Assembly (NCBI GenBank): GCA_964650405.1
Contig: CAZYTO010000001.1
Coordinates: 4,268-68,267 of the forward strand
Length of the DNA stretch: 64,000 nt
Reading direction: 5' to 3'
Source: an uncultured Thermoanaerobaculia bacterium
Lineage (GTDB): Bacteria; Acidobacteriota; Thermoanaerobaculia; Gp7-AA8
In this document: in pieces, positions 5,439 to 37,221 of the stretch
Numbering within the stretch: position 1 is the first letter of the stretch
Layout: each line of letters begins with the position of its first letter
Made by a program: the position numbers and the translations under genes
Notes under the pieces: generated by a model
Told to the model about the DNA's origin: nothing
The model's input: only the letters and a program-made list of their open reading frames with translations
Database searches by the model: none

Positions 5439-6653
5439 ATGAGACGGATCGACCCCAACAACTTCCACGTCGCCACCCGCGGCACCCCCCGGCAGATCAA
5501 CCGCCAGATCGCCCTCAATCTCATCCGCACCCGCCAGCCCATCTCCCGCGCCGACCTGGCCCGCTCCATGAACATGCGCCGCGGCGCGGTCAGCCTCCTC
5601 GTCAACGAGCTGATCGAAGAAGGGCTCATCTTCGAGGGCGCCACCGGCGAGACCTCCCGCGGCCGCAAACCGAAGTTCCTCTTCGTCGACACCCGCTCGC
5701 GCTGCGCCGTGGCCGTCGACGTCCGCCCGACGCGCACGTACTTCATGGTCACCGATCTCGTCGGCCGCCCGCTGGTGGGCATCACCAGCTTCGCCACCGA
5801 GCGCGAGCCGGAGCGTTTCGTCAGCGAGTTGACCAAACGCATTCACCGCGCGCTCTCCGATCACGACGAGCTCGGCGAGTGCGCCGGCGTGGGCATCGTC
5901 GTCCCGGGCATGGTCGACAGCACGCGCAGCCGGGTGCTCTTCGCCCCTCGCCTGGGCTGGCACGATCTGCCGCTGCTCGAGCCGCTGGAGAAAGCGCTGG
6001 GGATGCCGGTATCGATCGAGAACTCCGGCCGGGCCTGCGCGCTCGCGCAGTTGTGGGCGACGCGCGGCGGCACCGACACCCCCGACGACTTCGTCTTCGT
6101 CAGCGTCTCCGACGGCCTCGGTGTCGGCGTCATCGTGAAGGGGGAGTTGCTGCGCGGACAGCACAATGTGGCCGGCGAATTCGGCCACATGGCGCTCAGC
6201 ATCGACGGCCCGCGCTGCGCCTGCGGCGTCAACGGCTGCTGGGAGAGCTACGTCTCCAATCTGGCCACGCTCTCGCGCTATTTCGGACGCAACCTCGCCG
6301 ACGATCCACCGGCCGAGTCGATGACCCTGGCCATGGATGACCTCATCGCACTGGCGCACTCCGGCGACGCCAAGGCCCTGAGCGCACTGCAAACCACGGC
6401 CCGCTACCTCGGCTTCGGCCTGGCCTCGGTGGTCAATGCCGTCGATCCGGCCCGCATTTACATCGGCGGCGAGCTGACGGCGGCGTGGGATCTCGTCGAG
6501 GGCACGGTGCGCGGCAGCCTGAAGGAGCGGACCCTGCGTCCGGTCGGCCGCCATGTCGAGATCGTCGTGGTGCCGGCCAGCGACTATCCCCGCCTCAAAG
6601 GAGCCGCCGCCCTCGTTTCCGCCCCCTCGTTCGCCGCGCCGGTCGTCGCATAG
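5439..6653 (+). CDS. ROK-family transcriptional regulator (NagC/XylR-like)
   Basis: 404 aa. N-terminal HTH (INRQIALNLIRTRQPISRADLARSMNMRRGAVSLLVNELIEEGLI), then a ROK sugar-kinase-like fold with the zinc motif CACGVNGCWE and GHM. It is divergent from the receptor/kdgK operon. Confidence 0.85.
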   Translation: MRRIDPNNFHVATRGTPRQINRQIALNLIRTRQPISRADLARSMNMRRGAVSLLVNELIEEGLIFEGATGETSRGRKPKFLFVDTRSRCAVAVDVRPTRTYFMVTDLVGRPLVGITSFATEREPERFVSELTKRIHRALSDHDELGECAGVGIVVPGMVDSTRSRVLFAPRLGWHDLPLLEPLEKALGMPVSIENSGRACALAQLWATRGGTDTPDDFVFVSVSDGLGVGVIVKGELLRGQHNVAGEFGHMALSIDGPRCACGVNGCWESYVSNLATLSRYFGRNLADDPPAESMTLAMDDLIALAHSGDAKALSALQTTARYLGFGLASVVNAVDPARIYIGGELTAAWDLVEGTVRGSLKERTLRPVGRHVEIVVVPASDYPRLKGAAALVSAPSFAAPVVA

Positions 6654-7425: not shown

Positions 7426-9359
7426 TGATGATGAAGAAATGCGTGCTGCTGCTCGCGCTCTGCGCCGTTCCCGCTCATGCCGAGGAGATTCCGACGTATG
7501 CGGCGCTCCTGGCGCGGCCGGTTCATTTGAAGCCGGAGTTGGAGGGCGTCCACCCGCGGGTCTTCGTCACGGCGGAGGAGATCGCGGCGCTGCGCGAGCG
7601 CGCGCGGACGACCCATCGTGAAGAGTGGGCGGGCGTCCTAGCCAACCTCGCCGCGCTCAAGGGGGATCCGCCCAAACCGCCGGGCCCGCAGGAGCGGCGC
7701 GCCCAGAACACGATCGCCTATGCCATCGCCGAGGTGAGCCTCGCCTATGCCATAGAGAAGAAGCCGGAGTACCTCGAGGCGGCGCGCAAGTGGACGCTCG
7801 CGGCCATCGACTACGAGCCGTGGGGATACACGTACAACCTCCCGAACGTCGACCTTGCCGCCGCGCATCTGCTCTATGCCATCGGCTGGTCGTACGACCT
7901 TCTCTATCACGACCTGCCGGACGCGGAGCGGCAGCGGATCCGGGCCTCGCTCGAGCGCCACGCCGATCTCGTCTACGACTATTTCGCATCGAAGAAGAAG
8001 CTCAACTTCACGCAGAACCACGACTTCATCACCACGTCCGGACTGGGCATCGTGGCGCTGACGCTCCTGGGCGAGTCGCCGAACGCGCCGAAGTGGGCGG
8101 CCCTGGCCCGCGCGCATCACGACCGCGCCGGGTATCTGCTCAGCCCTGACGGCCATTACTTCGAAGGCTTCGAGTATTGGACGTTTTCCGCGCCGTGGCT
8201 CGTGCACTTCCTCGACGCCTGGGAGCACTCCACGGGCGAGAGCCTGTGGGATCGCGACCTCTTCCGCAACTGGAAGCTCTACGTCGCGCACTCGGTCCTC
8301 CCCGACGGAAAGACCGTGACCGACTTCGGCGACATATGGGAAGGTCCTGTCACGCGCGCCCACAAGGGCGCCGATTACCCGCGCGTCTATCCCGGCGGAA
8401 CGCTGCGCAGCAACTACAACATCCTCTATCGCGTCGCGGCCCGATTGCACGATCCGGAAACGCAGGCCGTGGCCGAGCGCATGCGCGGCTTCGGGCAGAG
8501 CAATCACGAGGAGTATTGGACGTTGATCTGGCGCGATCCGTCTCTGGAGGCAGCGCCGATGTCGCACATTCCCTTGCGCCATCACTTCGCGGATTCCGGC
8601 TACGTCTACGTACGGACGTCGTGGGAAGGGGATGCGACCGTCCTCGCGTTCAAAGCCGGCCCGCCGGAAGGGCATCGTGCACTGGCATTGGAGGCGAAGA
8701 TTCCGGAGTGTACGCCCAGCGACGGCCACGCCCACCCGGACGCCAACAGCTTCATCTTCTATGCCCGCGGCCGCTACCTCACCGGCGACACCGGCTACGC
8801 GGGCCAGCCGCGCTCACGCAACCACAACACCATTTCCGTCGGCGGGATCGGGCAGGGGAGAGAGGGCAATCACGACGTCTGGGCCGGCATGGCGCGCGCG
8901 TCGCTGGACGGGATCCGCATCGTCGACGCGCAGTTGAGCGCCGGCAAGCCTCGCATCGTCGGCGAAGCGGCCGGCGCCTACACGAAGGATGCCGCGCTCG
9001 CGCGCTTCGAGCGCGAGGTCATTCTCGATCCGCAGCAGGTCACGCTCCAGGTCCGCGACCGCATCGAAACGCGCGAGCCGAAGACGGTGGAGTGGACGCT
9101 CAATGGCGACACGCCCTTCGTGAAGCGGGCCGGCGCCTTCGGCGACGGGGCAGTGGACGTCATCCCCAATCCTCCCAGCGGTGCGAAATTCGAGCTGCGC
9201 CCGACGGAGGTCAGTGCTCCCGGCCCTCCCGGCTCGCTCACGAAAGGACCGGTGGAATCGCGCGGCGACCAGATCGCGATCACCGCGCCGCCGGCGACGA
9301 AGTTCGTCTTCGAAGCGACTCTGCGGCCGGCGACGAACGCCGCGGCGGTGGGGCGGTGA
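7425..9359 (+). CDS. Heparinase II/III-like (polysaccharide lyase-like) secreted protein
   Basis: 644 aa with a signal peptide (MMMKKCVLLLALCAVPAHA). N-terminal alpha/alpha toroid-like region, and a C-terminal region with the HAHPDANSF motif characteristic of heparinase II/III-like proteins. The start overlaps the SDR stop (TAATGATGATG). Confidence 0.6.
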   Translation: MMMKKCVLLLALCAVPAHAEEIPTYAALLARPVHLKPELEGVHPRVFVTAEEIAALRERARTTHREEWAGVLANLAALKGDPPKPPGPQERRAQNTIAYAIAEVSLAYAIEKKPEYLEAARKWTLAAIDYEPWGYTYNLPNVDLAAAHLLYAIGWSYDLLYHDLPDAERQRIRASLERHADLVYDYFASKKKLNFTQNHDFITTSGLGIVALTLLGESPNAPKWAALARAHHDRAGYLLSPDGHYFEGFEYWTFSAPWLVHFLDAWEHSTGESLWDRDLFRNWKLYVAHSVLPDGKTVTDFGDIWEGPVTRAHKGADYPRVYPGGTLRSNYNILYRVAARLHDPETQAVAERMRGFGQSNHEEYWTLIWRDPSLEAAPMSHIPLRHHFADSGYVYVRTSWEGDATVLAFKAGPPEGHRALALEAKIPECTPSDGHAHPDANSFIFYARGRYLTGDTGYAGQPRSRNHNTISVGGIGQGREGNHDVWAGMARASLDGIRIVDAQLSAGKPRIVGEAAGAYTKDAALARFEREVILDPQQVTLQVRDRIETREPKTVEWTLNGDTPFVKRAGAFGDGAVDVIPNPPSGAKFELRPTEVSAPGPPGSLTKGPVESRGDQIAITAPPATKFVFEATLRPATNAAAVGR

Positions 9360-10639
9360 CGGTCGTCGAAGGACAGGCGGCGCGCTTCGCGCCCGCGGAG
9401 AGCGTTGCCACGCACGTGCGTTGGGTGGTCTGCGCGCTCCTCTTCTTCGCCACGACGATCAACTACATCGACCGCCAGATCCTCGCCCTCATCAAGGAGT
9501 TCATCGATCGCGACCTGGGATGGACGAACGCGCAGTTCGGCCTCGCCAACTCCGCCTTTCAGGGCGCCTATGCCGCCGGCCTGCTGCTGTTCGGCTGGTT
9601 CGTCGATCGCCATGGCCCGAAGCTCGGCCTCGCCGTCTCCATCGTGGCCTGGAGCCTCTCGGCGATGGCGCACTCGTTGTCGGGCTCCATCGGCGGCTTC
9701 TTCACCGCCCGCGTAGCGCTCGGCGCCAGTGAAGGGGGCAACTTCCCCTCGGCCATCAAGGCGGTCGCGCATTGGTTTCCGCAGCGCGAGCGCGCCTTTG
9801 CCACCGCCATCTTCAATTCCGGCGCAAACGTCGGCGCCATCATCGCCCCGGCCACCATCCCCATCATCGCCTACAGCCTCGGCTGGCGCTGGGCGTTCGT
9901 CTTCGCCGGGCTGGCGGGGTTTCTCTGGCTTCCTTTCTGGCTGACGCTCTACCGCTCGCCGCCCAACGACGTGGACGAGCCCAGGGAAACGCAAGGCCGC
10001 CCCATGGGATGGCTTCGCGCACTACGCCATCGCCAGACGTGGTCCTTCGTCGTGGCGAAGTTCATCACCGATCCCGTGTGGTGGTTCTTCCTCATCTGGC
10101 TGCCTGACTACTTCAAGGCACCGCGCGGCCTAAAAATCAAGAAGAGCTGGGTGCACCTCGTCACGATCTACGCCATCGGGAGGTGCTTCAGCATCTTCGG
10201 CGGCTGGGTGACGGGATACCTCACCCGCCGGGGATGGAGCGTGACGCGCGCGCGCAAGACGGGGATGTTTCTCTTCGCCCTGTGCGTCGTGCCCATCATC
10301 GCCGCGACGCGCGTGGGCGACTGGCCCGCCGTATTGCTCATCGGCCTGGCCGCCTCCGCCCATCAGGCCTTCTCGGCCAACCTCTTCACGACCGTCTCCG
10401 ACATGTTCGCCAGGAAAGACGTGGCCACGATCATCGGCCTGGGCGGGATGACCGGCTCGATCGGCGGCATCCTTTTCCCCTGGTTTTCCGGCCGCATTCT
10501 CGATCGCTACCACGCCCTCGGCAACGTCACGGCCGGCTATCAGATCCTGTTCGCCATCTGCGCGTCGGCGTATGTCGTCGCCTTCGCCATCCATCACGTG
10601 CTCGCCCCCAAATTCGAACGAGTTGAGGAGTTGCCATGA
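9356..10639 (+). CDS. exuT: MFS transporter, hexuronate transporter ExuT-like (ACS family)
   Basis: About 12 TM segments. Motifs INYIDRQ and GASEGGNFPSAIKAV are typical of ExuT/ACS-family sugar-acid porters. Putative GTG start at 9356 overlaps the previous stop (GTGA). The stop overlaps the uxaC start (ATGA). Confidence 0.75.
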   Translation: MTVVEGQAARFAPAESVATHVRWVVCALLFFATTINYIDRQILALIKEFIDRDLGWTNAQFGLANSAFQGAYAAGLLLFGWFVDRHGPKLGLAVSIVAWSLSAMAHSLSGSIGGFFTARVALGASEGGNFPSAIKAVAHWFPQRERAFATAIFNSGANVGAIIAPATIPIIAYSLGWRWAFVFAGLAGFLWLPFWLTLYRSPPNDVDEPRETQGRPMGWLRALRHRQTWSFVVAKFITDPVWWFFLIWLPDYFKAPRGLKIKKSWVHLVTIYAIGRCFSIFGGWVTGYLTRRGWSVTRARKTGMFLFALCVVPIIAATRVGDWPAVLLIGLAASAHQAFSANLFTTVSDMFARKDVATIIGLGGMTGSIGGILFPWFSGRILDRYHALGNVTAGYQILFAICASAYVVAFAIHHVLAPKFERVEELP

Positions 10640-12846: not shown

Positions 12847-14055
12847 ATGAAGATCGTCGACGCCAAGGTGATTGTCTGTTCCCCGGGCCGCAATTTCGTG
12901 ACGCTCAAGCTCGTCACCGAAGACGGCATCCACGGCCTCGGCGACGCAACGCTGAACGGGCGCGAGCTGGCCGTTGCTTCGTACCTGAGCGACCACGTCC
13001 TCCCCCTCCTCATCGGCCGCGACGCGCGCAAGATCGAAGACACGTGGCACTATCTCTACAAGGGCGCCTACTGGCGCCGCGGACCGGTGACGATGACGGC
13101 CATAGCCGCCGTCGACTGCGCCTTGTGGGACATCCGCGGCAAGGCCCTGCAGACGCCGCTGTATCAACTGCTCGGCGGCGCGTCGCGCGATGGCGTGCTC
13201 GTCTACGGCCACGCCAACGGCGACACGATCGAAGCCACCGTCGACGCCGTCCGCCACTACCTCGGCCTGGGTTACAAGGCTGTCCGCGCGCAATGCGGCA
13301 TTCCCGGCCTCCCCAATGCCTACGGTGTCGGCCGCGGTGCGATGTTCTATGAGCCGGCGGAGAAGGGGAAACCGCTGGAGACGCGTTGGGACACGGCCGC
13401 ATATCTCGACCTCGTCCCGAAACTGTTCGAGCGCCTGCGCAACGAGGTCGGCGCCGACCCCCTGCTGCTGCACGACGCCCATCACCGCCTCACGCCCATC
13501 GAGGCCGCCCGCCTCGGCAAGAGCCTCGAGCCGTATCACCTCTTCTGGCTCGAGGATCCCACCGAGGCCGAGGCGCAGGAGGCGTTTCGCCTGATCCGCC
13601 GGCACACGACCACGCCGCTCGCCGTCGGCGAAGTCTTCAACACCATCTACGACTGCCATCAGCTCATTCAGGAGCAGTTGATCGACTACATCCGCGCCAC
13701 GGTCGTCCACGCCGGCGGCATCACGCACCTGCGCAAGATCGCCGCGCTGGCGGAGCTCCATCAGGTCCGCACCGGCTCGCACGGCGCGACGGACCTCAGC
13801 CCGGTCTGCATGGCCGCCGCCCTCCACTTCGATCTCAGCGTTCACAACTTCGGCATCCAGGAGTACATGCGCCACACCGCGGAGTGCGATCGCGTGTTTC
13901 CGCACAGCTACACGTTCGAGGGCGGCTTCATGCATCCCGGCGACGCTCCCGGCCTCGGCGTCGACATCGACGAAGCGTTGGCCGCGCAGTATCCGTACGA
14001 GCGCGCCTATCTCCCCGTCAACCGGCGCACCGACGGCACCGTGCACAGTTGGTAG
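12847..14055 (+). CDS. manD: D-mannonate dehydratase, enolase-superfamily type (ManD)
   Basis: 402 aa. [21 protein letters not shown]... is the typical ManD/GalD-subgroup N-terminus, followed by TIM-barrel metal ligands (D...E..D, HGATD). Confidence 0.85.
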
Positions 14056-14559
14056 CGCGCCGGCAGGCCCCGATGCAGTGAACGGCCCCGCAGGCGAACG
14101 ACATGGCCGAGGCGTCGCGCCGCTCGACCGGTACATCCGCCACACGTGCCGATTCCGTTCTGAACCGCTTCCCCAACGTCGCGGAGGTGTCGGGGAGGTG
14201 AAGTGCTGGTTCTTGCGGCCCCGACGGGAGGGGCGGCATCGCCCTCCTGGCCGCATGGTTTTCATGTGGCTCTACCTCGCCCAACTTCGCGTCGTGCCCT
14301 CCACTAGTCTTAGAGGCACGTGGCGACGTTTCCTGGATGCACCTCCGGAGTGGTTACATTCGACGCGTGGACGCGCTACATATGCCGTCTTGGGTATCCC
14401 GATTCACGCGCCACGTGTGCGGGCTTGATCGTGCGGAGTCCCCTGCTCGGTGCTTGGCCAAGAGAGACGTCGTTGGTGGATGCCGTGGGGTGTGGTACAG
14501 CCAAGTAGGCCTTTGCACCTGCGCGGTCCGCCCGCGGTGAAGCGTGGTGGAAGTGATCG

Positions 14560-15230
14560 GTTCAGTTGGAGTTGAGTCATGATGGCGTGGCGCTGATCAA
14601 AGTCGAACCGACGACCTCCTTGAGGTGCGACTCAGGCGACGGATCGCGTACTGCGCGGCGGGTTGGGCGGCCAAGCACGCGTTGACCCTGGAAGGGAAAG
14701 CTCTGCGTCTTGGTCGCGATCTCCTTACAAGGTCGGCGTTGGGTCTCGAGTCCAAAATAGTGACTCGCGAGTCCGTGATTCGGTGGCGCGAGTCAAAGTT
14801 AGGGACTCAGGGGTCAAACATTGAGACTCATGAGACTCTGGGTGTGGCTATTATGGGCTGATATTTAGACTGTTGAGTCAAATGTCTTGACTCATGGGTC
14901 TGAAATCAGGACTATTGAGTCTCTTATATTGTGTCTTTGACCCAATACATCACCTCGTGAGTCGTTAGTTGAGGCTCACGCGTCTTAATATAAGACTCAG
15001 AAGTCTGAAATAATGGCTATGATGGCCTAAACATCTGACTCGCGAGTCTCTTTGTTGGACTCCACCCCGCGTGCGGGAGACTGCGTTGCCGGATCTGCTC
15101 GGTCGTGAGGCAATGCCGGAGGCCCGCGACCCTGGAAATGAGACTCGAGACCTCCGCCGGCATGCTCGCGAGCTTGCGATCTTCGATGAACAGCCAGATA
15201 TCGAGACTCGCGAGCTCGCGTTCTTGACCG
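14560..15230. repeat. Low-GC, GAGTC/GACTC-dense noncoding island with palindromes (GACTCGCGAGTC twice; TGAGTCA-N8-TGACTCA)
   Basis: About 19 occurrences of GAGTC or its complement in ~650 bp, where chance predicts about 1.3. Local GC is about 40-45% against a ~66% background. There is no credible ORF. The island lies inside a 1.34-kb gap between the 3' ends of the convergent genes manD and alpha-2-macroglobulin. Confidence 0.5.
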
Positions 15231-15395
15231 TGCAGCCGGTGCGCCTGCCTGTGGACCCAGGGAATCGGACTGGCGAGCGACCGGCGGAGCCTGCGGAGTC
15301 GCGCGGGCTGGCTGAAGAGCGAGGAGGCGTCACTCGGGGCCCTGTCCCTGGCGGTCCATCGAGTGCGCCGCCCCGTCTTCAGCAACCGCCTGCTC

Positions 15396-18300
15396 TCACT
15401 TCTTCCCCGTCACCTCGATTCGTACCTCGTCCCCGTTCGCGCGGATCTCGGGGACGTACATTGCCTGCGCCAGCAGGGGCAGGGCGTGGAAGGCGCCGGG
15501 GACTTCGGCGCGCAGGGTGTAGCGGATCTCCCAGATGCCCTGGGGGAGGTGGTCGAGGAACATGGCCACTTTCCGGTCGCGCAGTTCCTGGTAGATCCAG
15601 GCCGTGCGGCCGGTGAGATCGGCGGAGGCATCGCGTTGCGTGACGGTGGGCTGCTCGCCGGGCGGCGTGGGGGAGTCGACGAACTTGCGGGTGACGGTGC
15701 CGCTGCGGAGCTCCCGCGCGTCCAGCGGCTCGCCGCTCTGGAGGGCGATGGCTTCGAGTCCGGCCGGCTTGAGGTCCTCGAAGAGCAGGTAGTCGTAGTC
15801 GTTCTTCGACTCGACGGTGAGGACGACCTCCACGCGGTCTCCGCTCTCGACCGAGCCGCCGTCGGGCAGGGGCACAGTCTCGTACACGATGCCTTTCAGC
15901 AGGGTGGGATGGGGGACGAGCTTGAAGTAGTCGCGGCGCACGTAGATCTCGTTCCCGGCCGCCTTCACCGGTTCTTCGAGTGAGACGAAGCGCGCCTCGG
16001 CCGAGAAGTAGAGGGGCGCATCGCCGTTCCCGCGGGTGCGGCGGATGGTGATCTCGTTGACGCCGTCGTGGGTGAAGGCGGGGTCGATGACGAAGCGGCT
16101 CGGCGCGCCGAGGATGCCGGCGGGAGTGACGGTCTTCGACGCGATGGCATGGCCGTTCACCGAGAGCTCGTAGCCGATGTCGCCCTTCAGCTCGCCGCTG
16201 GTGCGCATGTAGTCGTTGAGGCCGAGGAGGGCGATGGCCGTGTCGCGGGTATTGTTCCACTGCGCGCCGCGGCGGTTCTTCACCAGCCAGTTCATCACCG
16301 GCTCGATGAGGGCATTCTTCGGATCGACCGCCACCAGCGCCTGCAGGGCGAAGGACGTCGTCTCCACGGGACCGTCGTACCAATGCCACCAGAAGCGATC
16401 CTCACCCCAGTGCGCGGTGGCCATCGTCTCGGTAGCCGACGAACCGCCGCGCACAAGCACGGATTGATCGGGAGTGCGGTCGATCTGCACGCCGTCTTCG
16501 AGATTGCGCACGAGCACCTGGGCGCTCGCGGCATCGCCGAGATCATGCGCGGCCAGCGCCAGCAACGCGCGTGAGTAGGCCGTCAGCCGCTCGCGATTCG
16601 CATAGGCGTCGTCGAAGGCCTTCGTCATGGCCTTGCTGTGAGTCATGATTCTGTTTGCGCGGTTCCAGGCGGCCAGCGCATGGAGGATCCATGCCTCGTT
16701 GGCGTGATCTCCATGGATTGCCGGAAGTTGATCGTCGAGATACTTCGCAGCCCTCCCGACGGCCTCGTCCTCCACCGCCAGTCCCCCCTCTTTGGCGACG
16801 GCGAAGCCCCAGACGACATAGCCGGTCATGAAGAGGTCGCTGTTGCCCTCTTTCCACCATCCCCAGCCGCCGTCGCTGTGCTGGAAGTCGTACAGGCGGT
16901 CCATCGACGCGGTGGTGATGGCCTCGAGCTGGTGCAGGTCCTTCTTTCCCTTGGGATGTGTGGCGGCGGCGGAGCCGGACTCGATGCCGCCAAACACCCG
17001 CCCTTCGATGTCCGCAGGATCGAGACCGTTCGTCTTCAACGTGCGCGCCACGATGGCCGCGGGCAGAAAGCGGCTCATCGTCTGTTCCGTGCAGCCGTAC
17101 GGATAGTCGATGAGGTAGGGGAGTGCGTCGAGCATCGTCACGGCCAGGCTGGGGGAGATCTGTACGCTGAGCGTGGTGGCGCGGCGCGCAGAGGGGAGGT
17201 CGAGGCGGACCAGCGCCTCCGTTCCGCGCAACTTGCCGGAGCGGGCCACGAGCTTGTCGATGCCATGCTCGTAGACGGTGAACGACTTCTCCATTGCGTC
17301 GTTGTGCGCCCCGCCGCGGCCGGTGACGCGCAGCATGGCCGGGCCGGCATGTTCGGCCACGACTGCCCAGTCGACGCGCGTCTCGCCGTTGGCCGGAACG
17401 TCGACGGTCGTGGCATCGCCGTTCACGCGGCCGGACAAGGTCAGTCCTTCCACATCGAGGGACGGCCTGACGTGCTGGACGTCGGCGGTGTTGTTGTTGA
17501 GGACGGCCGAGACGACGGTGTGGTCGCCGGTCACGAAGAAGCGCGGCCCTTCCAGCCGGACGAGGAGCGGCAGGTTCGTTCGGGCCGTGGCGGAGGCCAT
17601 GCCGAACTGCGAGCCGGCGGTGACGGCACGCGCGGTCGTGCGCCACGTGGTCAGGGCCTCGGGATAGTCGAAGCTGACGGTGGCCTTGCCGTCAGCACCG
17701 GTGATGACGTCCGGCCTCCAGAACGCCGTGGAGCGGAAGTCGTGACGCACCTGGACCGCAGCCGCGGACTGGATCCCGGTGGGCTCGGTATCCCGTTTCG
17801 TGACCATATTCAGTCGCACAGACATCGACGGCTTTGCGACCGTGATGGCTTCCAGAAGCGGCGCTTCGGTGGTGACGGTGATGGCGTCCGCGACCGGCTT
17901 CGGAGGCGGAGGAGCGGGGAGCGTCTGGACGCCGCCCACTACGCCACCCACGACTCCGCGGCCCCCGAAAGCAAAGCCTGTCTGGTTTGCTCCGTCGACC
18001 TCGTAATAGGGCAGGAGAAGAGACGAGTCTGGTGCGGCAGCGTTCGTCGCGGTCTTCGTGGCCTGCTCATCGACCAGCGCGCCTTTTCCGTCCTCCACCA
18101 ACCGCACGTAGCGTTGCGACAGGACGCTCGACTCGATCCCCAGGCTCTGCGTGCGGAGGTCGTTGTAGAAGAACTGCCGGGGATCGCCGGCGTAGTCCTG
18201 GGCGATGGCGGTCACGGACGCGTCGGATACGGCCACCGCCACCTCTGCCGGCACGGGTTTGCCGGCGGCATCGCGCGTCGTCACGGTGACGGTGCCCTTC

Positions 18301-21300
18301 TGCCGCGGCTCGTAATCCTCGCGGTCCGTGTGCACCTCGACTTTCACGAACTTCTCGACCGGCGGGACGACGATCTCCTTCGTCTCCGTTGCCACCGCGC
18401 GGTCGAACATCGACGAAGCGGTGATGAAGAAATTCGGTATGTGGTGCCGGTCGATGGGCAGTTCGATCATCTTCACGGTCCCGTCGAGGTGAACGACCTG
18501 GGTCTGGTCGATGTCCAGCGTCGTCGTGGTCACCATCACCCACCGCCCGCTGGACGGCGTGGCGATCATCACCGGCATGGTGGCGCCGGCATGGACCGTG
18601 TCCTGATCGATCACGAGATCGAGGCCGGCGGAGTGGTAACCGACTTCATTGGTGGCGTGCTCGGTGACCCACACCGCCGTCTCCGCCGTGACGAGGTCGC
18701 GCGCCCGCAGCGGCCGGTCGCCGTCGCGGTCCTCGCTCGTCCATTTCGCTACGTAGTATCCGGTGCGCGAGGGCGTGAACGTGAACGTGGCGTTGCCCTT
18801 CACGTCCGTGTTCACCTTCGAGGTCGTGACCTCCTCGTCGTGATACGACGCCACTCTCTGCCGCCATCCCGGAGGCGGGAAGGGAGCCGTGGCCGCCCGT
18901 GCCCGCTCCACTTCGCGGACGGTGACGTCGCGGCCGGCAGGATCGGTCCAGATCTCCTCCCAGGTGCGCCGGAAGACTTTCACGGTGCCTGTCGTCGGGA
19001 CGGGCTCGTCGTTCGCGTCGGCGGCGTTGAAGTCGATCGAGACGCGCTCATTCGGCAGGCGCAGGTAGTGCTGGGGGTGACCGTTGACGGCATACCGCTG
19101 CTTCATCACGGCCACGGTTCCGCTGCCCGTCACCTCGCGCCGCGAGGCGTCCGTCACCTTCACGGCGATGATGTACGCCGTGTCGGGACCGTCGCGGTCG
19201 GTGTCGATGTGCACGACAGCCCGGCCGCTCGCATCCGTCTTCAGCGTCTCGTGATGCAATTCCTCCCCGCTGCCGGAATCATCGGAGCTCGACTGGTCGG
19301 GATAGAACCAGCCGTACTCGTGCCACGGATGCCAGTCGCGATGGTACGGGGCCTTCTCTATGTCCACCTCGACGGTGGCATTGGCGACCGGACCGCCGAA
19401 GTAGTAGGACGCCTCCACGCTGGCCTCGATGGTGTCGCCGAGACGGTATCGCTTCTTCTTCCCGTCCTCCTCGGGCGTCGAGACGGTCACCCGAAACTCC
19501 GGCAGCTTGTATTCCTCGATACTGAACAGCAGGGCGGTGCCGATGTCGTTGTCCTTGTCGGAGGGTTGTCTGAGAATGACCGTGTAGCCGCCGAGCGGCA
19601 TTTCCGCGGTGACCGGCAGCTCGGCCCAGAAACTACCGAAGGCATTCAGCTCGGCCACGCCGGACGCGATCTTGTCGTCCCGCGGTCCGCTGATCTCCCA
19701 CTCCACCTTCCGCCCGGCCGGTGTCGTCCAGTCGCCGCCTTTCCGCGTCCGGGCGATGACCTTCCACTGCACCGTCTCGCCCGGCCGGTAGGCGGGGCGG
19801 TCGGTGAATGCGTAGATGCGCCACTCGTCCGGTTCGGCGCTTGAGCCCGCGCTGTAAAGGTAGCTTGCGTGGTAGGCCTGCCTGCTGCCCTTCGAGGCAG
19901 TGATCAACGTCTGGTCGTGAAGGTTGGCGGCCATTCGGATCTCGGCGACGCCGTTCGCGTTCGTCTCCGCGTCACGAACGCTCAGCGCGGGGTCCGTTCC
20001 CCTCCCGTCCAGGACGCGAACGCGCGCGCCGGCCACCGGCTCGCCGCTCATCACGTCCGCCACGAGGATCTGAAGATGGCCCTCGACGGAGTGCGCGAGG
20101 ATGCCGATGTCGCTGACCAGCAGGAGCTGCCTCGATGACTGCTGGCCGTTAGTCGCGGTGACGACGTAGGCGCCCGGCCCGAGCTTCGGCTCGATGCGCA
20201 CCGCCTTGCTGCCGGGGATGTGCTCTCCCTTGTCGCCGGTCTCGAACGTCCAGCGCCGGAGGACCGGCTCCCGTTCCCGTTGCAGGTGATCGATCCAGTG
20301 GTCCAGGTTTCTCCCCGGTCGCACGTCGCGGGTCAGGTCGACGGCGGCCAGGGTCAGCTCGATCGACGTCACGTTTCGCCAGGTCAGGACCACCTGCTGT
20401 TCCGAGGAGGGGAGGAAAGTCGCCCCGGCGTAGACGCCTACCGCGGGGAGGGTGATCTGGTCGATCTGCGACAGCGCCTGTTCACGGAGAGGGGACTCCC
20501 CGGGCTGGTATTCGGCGACGATGCGGCGAAGGAGTTCCAGCGCCTTGAGGTAGTCCTTCCGGAATCCGCTCTCGCCGTTGTCGAGGACGACGACGCTGCC
20601 GGCGTAGGAGAGCTCGCCGGCATAGGCAAAGAGGGCCTGGTCGTAATACGTGCCCTTGCGGCCCTGGCCGATGAGAATGTCGAGGTGTTCCAGGCCCCGC
20701 TCCACGCTTTCCGGCTTCTGCTCCTGGAGGAGCTTCTGGGCCAGTAGGAACCGGGCATGATCGCGGTCATTCGGAGATTCGGCGACGCTGAGAGCTTTGA
20801 CGAGCAGGTCCTTTGGAGCCAAGTTTCGTTGGGAGAGCCGCCAGACGATGTCCAGGTAACGCCGGCGCGCCAGGGGAAGATCGTCGCTTCCCTCCCACCA
20901 GTCCAGCGCAGCGGTCCAGTACTTCGGCACAGCGGTGTAGTCCTGCAGGTAGGGGTGGAACGCGTGCAGGTCGCCGAGCGACTCATTCGCCTCCGCCCAC
21001 ACCCGATCGTGATCGTCTCCGCTCTTGAGGATCAGTTGTTCGAGCGCCGTCTGCGCTCCGCTGCGCGCCGTCGGATCGGAAAGAGGGCTCGCGGCGTCAT
21101 TGCGCCATGCCGTGTCGGCCAGCCGGAATTCGATCCAACGCCGCTCGTCGGGCGCCAGCGACGGCAGCTTCAAGGCCTGCTCGTAGAACCCGTGAGCGCG
21201 GCCGAAAGACTTTTCCGCGTAGCTCTGTTCCGCCTGTTCCTTCAACTGGCCGTAAGAGGAGGGCGCGGACGGGGCGCCACCCGACGCCGGCAGGAACCTG

Positions 21301-21332
21301 AGCAAGGCAAGCAGGAACGAAATCAGCGACAT
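15396..21332 (-). CDS. Bacterial alpha-2-macroglobulin (thioester-containing protease inhibitor), 1,978 aa
   Basis: Signal peptide. Multiple MG-like beta-sandwich domains. Intact thioester motif GCTEQ (..[26 protein letters not shown]..), a TED alpha/alpha-toroid region, and a receptor-binding-like C-terminus. Confidence 0.9.
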   Translation of the reverse strand: [1978 protein letters not shown]

Positions 21333-36983: not shown

Positions 36984-37221
36984 CGACTCTTCACTCCCGC
37001 CCTTCTTGCAGAGAGACGTACGCGCCGGGGTCCGGTTTTGCTCACGATTCGCCATCAGCCGCACGCCAATTCCGCCGGATTTGCCTCTCGTAGCCCTATC
37101 CTGCCCTTCTCCGGACGGTTCCCAGATCCTATCAGGTTGAAAGTCTCCAATGATTTACATGGTTCAGCTTGCGAAAGTGTGAGTTACGACAAACAATCCT
37201 AGTCCCATAGGAGGTTTTTCT

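Follow-up and report, generated by a model that had tools for sequence, protein, structure and literature searches.

Tandem repeats built on 7 bp units have been reported in Xanthomonas, Geobacter, Beggiatoaceae and cyanobacteria, with contradictory suggestions as to their role and no experiment that settles the matter. In Xanthomonas there are ~185 repeats of the (GGGAATC)n and (GGGANTN)n types per genome, ~90% of which are intergenic, often arranged as convergent or inverted pairs and located at a mean of 28 nt past the 3′ terminus of the upstream open reading frame (ORF); positions 1–4 and 6 of the GGGANTN logo are conserved, and the repeats have no established function (Rehm et al. 2015; PMC4692102). 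Geobacter metallireducens has short tandem heptamers, MTYCTGA in five copies and GGGACCG in four, which occur in many copies, chiefly between genes and frequently as inverted pairs, and which have been interpreted as protein-binding arrays, putatively for a global regulator or for IHF/HU (PMC2700814). The TAACTGA heptamer repeats of the Beggiatoaceae are proposed to be post-transcriptional elements (PMC4679880). Here we describe an intergenic array of GAGTC and GACTC sites with a 21-bp period, at positions 14748–15337 of a 64-kb stretch of DNA (the window) that represents ordinary chromosome of a Thermoanaerobaculia (Acidobacteriota) metagenome-assembled genome (MAG). A literature search found no paper on GAGTC/GACTC palindrome arrays. 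We infer that the array is a higher-order, palindromic variant of the enigmatic heptamer-repeat class, with internal evidence of constraint and a putative function.

The array consists of ~28 head-to-tail 21-bp units of the form GAGTC-N9-GACTC-N2 spanning 590 bp, and in this entire length there are only two shifts of register, each of +1 bp, near 14832–14854 and 15022–15044. The period was derived from site phasing: the distances between consecutive sites are 14, 7, 21, 14, 21, 9, 41, 14, 28, 42, 35, 43, 7, 14, 84, 63 and 91, nearly all of them multiples of 7, and phase coherence is R=0.74 at period 7, a value reached in none of 100,000 random draws, with all other periods at ≤0.43. The 21-bp unit comprises three 7-bp heptad slots, of which every third is an AT-rich spacer lacking the motif. 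Between 14748 and 15296 an exact GAGTC is always at unit position 1 and an exact GACTC always at position 15, with one exception at the first register shift. The resulting orientation rule is palindromic, with GACTC-N2-GAGTC where sites are spaced by 7 bp and GAGTC-N9-GACTC where they are spaced by 14 bp, and the reverse order is never seen. As a consequence, the unit junctions form the palindrome GACTC-NN-GAGTC every 21 bp; two of these are perfect (GACTCGCGAGTC), and 9 of 15 junctions have no more than one mismatch per half. The pentamers also occur as in-register variants (GGGTC, AAGTC, GCGTC and GACTA/G), and in a 21-bp layout of 14748–15064 the per-column information is concentrated in the two pentamers, with an AT-rich spacer. 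With a register-aware score the array reaches 61 of 80, compared to 21.4 ± 4.2 (maximum 39) for the rest of the window, where no second array was found by this measure. Tandem Repeats Finder does not call the array because the units are too dissimilar, and returns only an 8-bp, 2.2-copy fragment at 15202–15220. The components of the array, none of which is assigned to a strand, are as follows.

14748–15064: AT-rich half of 15 units, consensus GAGTC-tnAnATtnn-GaCTC-nt, containing both register shifts (from the 21-bp layout, phase coherence and column identity)
15065–15337: GC-rich and more decayed half of 13 in-register units, variant consensus GAGCc-N9-GaCTg (from the in-register layout)
14762–14773: perfect 12-bp palindrome GACTCGCGAGTC at the junction of units 1 and 2
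15037–15048: second perfect 12-bp palindrome GACTCGCGAGTC, at the junction of units 14 and 15
14748–14773 and 15037–15062: 26-nt inverted-repeat arms with 88% complementarity, bounding the AT-rich half (from a repeat search)
14874–14894: best-preserved single unit, TGAGTCA-N7-TGACTCA, in a 7-7-7 arrangement
14790–14959: 85-bp higher-order repeat in two copies of four units each, the first 50 nt being 70% identical (from a repeat search)

A preliminary description made from the sequence alone had noted an island at 14560–15230 with a roughly 15-fold enrichment of GAGTC/GACTC, low GC content and exact palindromes, without the 21-bp periodicity. The island is real, with different boundaries: the feature is an ordered array rather than a loose cluster and extends rightwards beyond 15230 to ~15337, and it begins abruptly at 14748, leaving outside it two out-of-register sites, at 14574 and 14629. 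There are 19 sites in these 671 bp and 0.86 expected from the rest of the window (1.28 GAGTC/GACTC per kb), an excess of 22-fold (Poisson P=2e-19); no other 670-bp stretch of the window has more than five. In a k-mer comparison against the island's own composition, GACTC/GAGTC is the most enriched 5-mer of the island core (15 observed, 0.58 expected). Outside the island the word is present 80 times against a Markov expectation of 83.5, ranking 173 of 487 pentamers, which rules out the genome-wide bias that had been raised as a reason for dismissing the island, and gives no sign of restriction-type avoidance. GC content falls to 0.37–0.45 over 14800–15000 in a window that averages 66%, as had been noted. 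The sequences quoted there are also present, GACTCGCGAGTC at the two positions listed above with no further copy in the window and GAGACTCATGAGACTC at 14823–14838. The paired TGAGTCA (14874–14880) and TGACTCA (14888–14894) are separated by 7 nt and not by the 8 nt given previously. We note a second, smaller low-GC stretch at 37000–37220 (GC 0.58), in the divergent promoter gap between an HlyD-like efflux gene (minus strand) and a CHRD-domain gene (plus strand), which is without ordered GAGTC enrichment.

The relationship to the Xanthomonas repeats is apparent in that GGGAATC is a cyclic permutation of GAATCGG and is thus a GANTC heptad, with the same 7-bp period and variable central base, and in that both are intergenic and close past the 3′ end of an upstream ORF. 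There are, however, several departures. The unit is not a plain 7-mer but a 21-mer of two filled heptads and an AT-rich spacer heptad; G and C are the only central bases, and their set alternation generates palindromes; and the array is old and degenerate with its phase retained. It is also without G-tracts, so that the G-quadruplex idea cannot apply. It is therefore a variant of the intergenic heptamer class rather than a plain member of it, as it is not a homogeneous, simple 7-mer repeat. For Geobacter, CTCCTGA is a cyclic permutation of GACTCCT, which is the unit of runs that we find in three Acidobacteriota (see below), but the Geobacter elements are short (4–5 heptads), homogeneous, without 21-bp higher-order structure, and from a different phylum.

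The decay of the array has not been uniform along the unit. Pairwise identity among the 15 AT-rich units is 63% in the pentamer columns and 32% in the spacer columns, where 29% is expected by chance from the spacer composition, and the difference in column conservation is significant (Mann-Whitney p=3e-4). Similarly, when the two 85-bp higher-order copies are compared, 26 of 40 pentamer columns match and 19 of 45 spacer columns do so. In the GC-rich half, the A at unit position 2 and the T at position 18 are each retained in 11 of 13 units, the mean is 6.15 matches of 10 per unit compared to 2.67 for background, and at 15142, 15205 and 15296 there are exact sites that follow the orientation rule. 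The GC content of the spacers is 0.30, whereas non-repetitive noncoding DNA in the same gap is at 0.64–0.69, and the AT-richness is thus not simply a product of relaxed selection. The length of the unit itself appears to be conserved, as the spacers are saturated with substitutions and yet almost free of insertions and deletions.

The array lies in a 1,340-bp gap (14056–15395) between two convergently transcribed genes whose 3′ ends both face it, in agreement with the preliminary description, and its right edge is 58 nt downstream of the stop codon of the rightmost of these. The gap and its neighbors are as follows.

12847–14055, plus strand: MR/MLE (enolase-superfamily, ManD-like) dehydratase gene, the last of a hexuronate operon (Pfam MR_MLE_N and MR_MLE_C)
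14056–14747, no strand: ~690 bp of non-repetitive noncoding DNA (GC 0.64) from the ManD-like stop codon to the left array edge, used as the internal composition control
15396–21332, minus strand: bacterial alpha-2-macroglobulin (A2M) gene, 1978 aa (Pfam bMG10, MG2, A2M, TED and BRD domains)

The operon to the left of the gap also encodes UxaC and a short-chain dehydrogenase/reductase (SDR), and other genes in the window are of housekeeping type (a TonB-dependent receptor, a ROK regulator, hopanoid/isoprenoid synthesis, efflux and lipid enzymes). A protein identical to the A2M of the window is encoded on an NCBI contig. The named relatives of the A2M protein are annotated as Thermoanaerobaculia or Acidobacteriota; its two closest orthologues (68% and 60% identity) have no comparable downstream gap, indicating that the island is lineage-specific. 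No integrase, transposase, rep, par, dnaA, phage, plasmid or restriction-modification gene was found in the 64-kb window, and no DNA methyltransferase gene. The absence of a plausible ORF noted earlier holds up, as all ORFs in the gap score at ≤−0.19 per codon in a codon-usage model, resembling shadow ORFs, where real genes score at +0.35 to +0.80, and none has a Pfam match. A small minus-strand gene at 15017–15385, hinted at by a plot of GC by codon position, is ruled out by the same two analyses; the codon-like periodicity arises because 21 bp is a multiple of 3. There are no tRNA genes in the gap and no terminator-like site, and only one, weak, promoter-like site; a search of Rfam at gathering score is negative for the whole window, and so is one at E≤1 for 13900–15500. 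The island has no blastn match in plasmid and phage collections, and an exact 26-mer from the array, used to seek strain-level variants, has none in a metagenome collection. Bacterial intergenic DNA is seldom as long as the segment at 14056–14747, which lacks a coding signal, matches nothing in Rfam and resembles none of the loci fetched.

Arrays of related design are present elsewhere. A search of 185,579 species genomes for pairs of GAGTC-N9-GACTC units with 2–30 nt between them gave at least 118 stretches. This pattern pre-selects for the motif, and the matches are not all of the same kind, some being plainly coding repeats (e.g. L056 and L010); a test for stop-free frames over-calls coding among these arrays in high-GC DNA. 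Of the matches listed, 28 have a gap of 2 nt and 48 a gap of 22–23 nt, with ~1–11 at other values, and thus periods of 21 bp and 41–42 bp recur; 15 of the 20 listed matches at gap 22 derive from a single Aerococcaceae genome with a 41-bp repeat. In this genome (Aerococcaceae bacterium DSM 111176; 36% GC) the 41-bp-period repeat with GAGTC-N9-GACTC is present at a minimum of four loci on two contigs (L038, L068, L103 and L130), and it is probably an unrelated dispersed repeat family. In a scan of metagenomes gaps of 2 and 21–23 nt recur, but gaps of 11 and 19 nt dominate, and the replication is only partial. The dominant metagenome families are each confined to a single sample (gap 19 in Ga0081606 and gap 11 in Ga0209782), on at least 12 short contigs apiece (within L167–L286).

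Among the genome matches listed are five stretches from four Thermoanaerobaculia genomes (L046, L047, L087, L115 and L137), which have the core and the phasing in common and unrelated spacers. Their units are of three types.

L087: 14 copies of GACTCggGAGTCgtgcggcga
L046, L047 and L137: 42-bp units of GAGTC-N9-GACTC-t-GAGTC-N10-GACCC-tc
L115: GAGTC-yaaastgy-GACTC-N3

The 21-bp unit of L087 can be read as GACTCGG, GAGTCGT and a drifted heptad. Three further orthologues of the L046/L137 array were found in the metagenomes (L257, L275 and L284), and the five orthologous arrays at this peptidase-dGTPase locus differ in copy number and in unit details; as a comparison for constraint they are not decisive, because the genomes are so closely related. 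A 216-kb metagenome contig (L224) has two arrays 6.5 kb apart, at 2682–2812 and 9290–9814, with unrelated spacers, the second of which has 25 copies of the 21-bp unit GACTCgGAGTCgttcgtaagc with in-register variants GGGTC, AGGTC and GATTC. Relatives with several arrays thus have at least two loci each (L046 and L047; the two on L224), and sequence comparison shows that arrays within one genome have only the array in common and never the flanks. The related arrays start 19–60 nt past the stop codon of the upstream gene and their neighbors are unrelated housekeeping genes. There is no blastn match between the gap in the window and the related arrays, the window array being too degenerate. The comparison with related genomes that had been proposed yields no comparable gap beside the two nearest A2M orthologues, and similar arrays both in four or more further Thermoanaerobaculia genomes and outside the phylum; the latter include similar 42-bp units in an Actinomycetales MAG and a Pirellulales MAG. 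In the Actinomycetales MAG (La1_metabat2.181), 42-bp GAGTC-N9-GACTC-t-GAGTC arrays are at or near the ends of four contigs (L061, L075, L104 and L109), and are multicopy and assembly-breaking; L109 and L061 are 98% identical across the array and may be the two ends of one locus.

Simpler forms are found as well. There are pure heptamer runs of (GASTCCT)n in three Acidobacteriota (L094, L121 and L081; unit GACTCCT), and of (GANTCGG)n, identical to the permuted Xanthomonas heptad, in an acidobacterium (L135, 2811–2936) and a betaproteobacterium (L113, 2234–2370), with variation (C, G or T) confined to the central base. The (GANTCGG)n run of L135 is followed by an inverted (GAATCCC)n run, a convergent-pair layout like that of the Xanthomonas GGGAATC repeats. 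Some matches have 21-bp units that are visibly three heptads of which one has drifted, for example GAGTCcc-GCGTCtc-GACTCcc. These forms suggest a continuum, in which a heptamer repeat may give rise to a higher-order repeat of 21, 42 or 85 bp and then to a decayed array that keeps its phase.

Several other matches are of interest in their own right. A phage contig (L026, 4834–4895) has three perfect 21-bp units with the 16-bp palindrome CGGACTCACGAGTCCG in the gap just upstream of terL, amid HNH, capsid, protease and portal genes, where they may form an array for recognition by terminase or at cos; a second scan of viral sequences gave only 12 matches, with no preference for 21 or 42 bp. A viral contig (L010, 76–560) has 20 GASTC sites in perfect 7-bp phase inside a 271-aa ORF, corresponding to 21-bp coding repeats of the QESGVMT type; this ORF adjoins a winged-helix (PF14947) gene, and a locus in a Methanothrix MAG (L042) looks similar. 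In Chloroflexales bacterium ZM16-3 (L063, 4373–4498), ~125 bp of GAGTCAG/GACTCCC heptads are in a long open frame with flanking translation that looks continuous, and may represent an in-frame heptad insertion within a gene.

The reading that we tentatively favor is that the array derives, as a higher-order form, from a GANTC heptamer repeat and has been retained as a platform on double-stranded DNA, with many helically phased sites, for a putative dimeric or methylation-linked protein. It is suggested by the palindromic core, the fixed orientation grammar, the two-turn period, the bendable spacers and the selective retention of these, by the recurrence of core and phasing with different spacers in relatives, and by the lack of an alternative carrier of function, with no coding ORF or Rfam family and nothing of mobile-element, plasmid or phage type among the genes. 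An array of binding sites was among the options listed in the preliminary description and is now the best supported of them, given the strict 7/21-bp register, the fixed orientation and the pentamers kept between randomized spacers. Each unit would provide three 7-bp slots, two of them GASTC and the third a spacer, and a sequence-specific protein, most simply a homodimer, would read the 12-bp palindrome GACTC-NN-GAGTC at each unit junction; equivalently, two small dimers could occupy adjacent heptads, as ribbon-helix-helix proteins do. This reader could be a methyltransferase of GANTC/GAGTC or else a protein whose binding is sensitive to methylation. A 21-bp period corresponds to two helical turns and would place the bound copies on one face of the DNA, enabling cooperative binding or wrapping, and AT-rich spacers would ease DNA bending. 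Because the array is at the end of a transcription unit and not at a promoter, we conjecture that its role could be that of a barrier, an insulator, or a topological or nucleoid-organizing element. A ROK/MarR-type regulator encoded at 5439–6653 was considered as the binder and set aside on context, the array being downstream of the operon and having 28 sites.

Cooperative binding to tandem short palindromes or heptads is well known, as in F sopC with SopB, the heptads of the pSM19035 omega repressor, ParG boxes, ARG boxes and iterons. In F sopC, SopB binds a 16-bp palindrome that is present in each of twelve 43-bp units, and the heptads of the omega repressor are (WATCACW)n; in both, only the short palindrome or heptad is functional, dimers bind cooperatively, and the orientation of adjacent heptads matters. 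The window array is likewise a tandem series of short palindromes or heptads, and the 42-bp units of L046, L047 and L137 nearly match the sopC period. It differs in that there is no parA/parB or delta/omega operon in the 64 kb or beside the related arrays, and no repressor gene nearby; in that its sequence is unrelated; and in that it is set among housekeeping genes of the chromosome, such arrays being found at several unrelated loci in one genome.

A number of points weigh against a platform for protein binding. The evidence for constraint comes from one decayed array that was picked out for its motif richness, and the constraint is not uniform, the right half having drifted to GAGCc/GaCTg. 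No candidate binder gene adjoins the window array or the related arrays, all of which have unrelated housekeeping genes as neighbors. Perfect and recently expanded arrays in relatives (L087, and L224 with 25 units) show that slippage makes such arrays readily, and heptamer repeats are over-represented in bacteria generally, without proven function (PMC4692102). The main rival is thus a neutral or selfish minisatellite, in which a GANTC-type heptamer grew through polymerase slippage and unequal exchange into units of 21, 42 and 85 bp, in a selection-free zone past the end of a gene, and which is now decaying and functionless. This accounts for the origin of the array and for the perfect, many-copy arrays of relatives, and it fits with the series of pure heptamer runs, 21-bp units with a drifted heptad and 42-bp units, with the differences in copy number and unit details among orthologous arrays, and with the lack of a partner gene in cis; bacterial heptameric simple sequence repeats are over-represented with slippage as the proposed cause, and those of Xanthomonas similarly lie a short mean distance past the upstream ORF (PMC4692102). 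It does not account for the differential decay or the kept spacing, as neutral decay should strike pentamers and spacers equally and add insertions and deletions, whereas the pentamer columns are well above chance-level spacers and there are only two 1-bp shifts in 590 bp; nor does it explain spacers with a GC content far below that of the adjacent noncoding DNA. We therefore regard a functionless array as doubtful. An epigenetic cluster, in which GAGTC (GANTC-class) methylation sites are concentrated and their methylation state is read out, much as in the GATC clusters of SeqA/oriC or the methylated iterons of Vibrio chromosome 2, is unlikely. The conserved word is a known recognition site of methyltransferases and nickases, GAGTC being that of the PleI, MlyI and N.BstNBI class of enzymes and GANTC that of CcrM and HinfI. 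There is precedent for clustering methylation sites in phase, and related heptamer arrays vary only at the central N of GANTC (L113, L135 and the Xanthomonas GGGANTN). Yet there is no DNA methyltransferase gene in the 64-kb window, GAGTC is neither avoided nor enriched elsewhere in it, and a methyltransferase needs no fixed spacing or orientation, such that the 21-bp grammar would require a second, structural reader. The earlier suggestion of a methyltransferase target is accordingly neither supported nor excluded; methylation alone leaves the phasing and orientation unexplained, and it could be combined with binding sites.

Three further possibilities fare less well. If transcribed, the array could be part of the 3′ untranslated region of the A2M mRNA or a small RNA (sRNA), with hairpins that stabilize or process the transcript in the manner of REP/BIME elements, and both its start 58 nt past a stop codon (19–60 nt for the other arrays) and folding much stronger than that of shuffled sequence (z=−9.6 on the plus strand and −7.8 on the minus strand) could be taken to suggest this. 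Any set of inverted pentamers would give such z-scores, however, and the stems are only 5 bp, and are conserved by sequence and not by compensatory change; GACTC-N2-GAGTC cannot form a hairpin; moreover, the motif is strand-symmetric, there is no Rfam match at E≤1 and no terminator-like site with the single weak promoter-like one, and the relatives in Xanthomonas have no strand preference relative to genes (PMC4692102). An RNA element is thus quite improbable, and the earlier proposal of an sRNA locus is not supported. The resemblance to REP/BIME and to the Neisseria NIME/dRS3 elements is in having short palindromic units in dispersed arrays in intergenic positions, past 3′ gene ends or between convergent genes. 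REP units are 20–40-nt hairpin-forming palindromes with a GTAG motif that are mobilized by RAYT, and BIMEs bind IHF and gyrase, which by analogy could serve as a model for a topological or barrier role; they differ in that the arms in the window array are 5 bp with no hairpin requirement and no GTAG, the window has no RAYT gene, and the phasing of the array is a strict 21 bp. It is highly improbable that the array is left over from a mobile element (a miniature inverted-repeat transposable or foldback element, or the end of a transposon with several sites for its transposase) or from a site of phage packaging or attachment. The low GC content, the 26-nt inverted arms bounding the AT-rich half, the CGGACTCACGAGTCCG units upstream of terL in the L026 phage contig and the arrays at contig ends in other MAGs are compatible with it, but the arms are two array units in mirror order, the 64 kb contain no transposase, integrase or phage gene and no second copy, and copies elsewhere within a genome share the array and never its flanks. 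Neither phages nor plasmids give a blastn match, viral contigs lack the 21/42-bp peak, and there is no credible target-site duplication, a 10-bp direct repeat GACCCTGGAA (14684 and 15128) being at chance level and not beside any terminal inverted repeats. The idea of a mobile or prophage attachment remnant put forward previously thus finds no support. That the array is an origin of replication, or else a centromere of plasmid type (iteron, or parS/sopC-like), of the chromosome or an integrated replicon likewise has very little likelihood. The architecture is like that of F sopC, with its 12 units of 43 bp that each have a short palindrome, and of iterons with a ~22-bp period, the core is AT-rich, and there is a local minimum of cumulative GC skew near 14 kb. 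The window, however, lacks dnaA, rep, parA and parB, the flanking genes point toward the array rather than away from it, the skew follows gene orientation window-wide and its minimum results from the convergent orientation, and related genomes have several arrays at unrelated housekeeping loci.

In spite of its degeneracy, or rather because of it, the window array is a useful member of this group: it is old and its spacers are randomized, so that the pentamers, the orientation and the two-turn spacing that remain reveal which features are constrained. It gives an ill-defined class of simple repeats a specific and testable binding-site hypothesis, GACTC-NN-GAGTC every 21 bp, and the same core recurs in the under-studied class Thermoanaerobaculia. 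If a reader protein or methylation system were found for it, this would probably be a new chromosome-organizing or transcription-boundary factor. A broader and rather speculative extension, which we consider improbable, is that GASTC/GANTC heptad-phased arrays are the cognate sites of a putative DNA-binding or methylation-reading system that is widespread across phyla. If this were true, such a cross-phylum reader system would explain both the excess of heptamer repeats and their placement just past gene ends, and the window array would be an old example held by selection.

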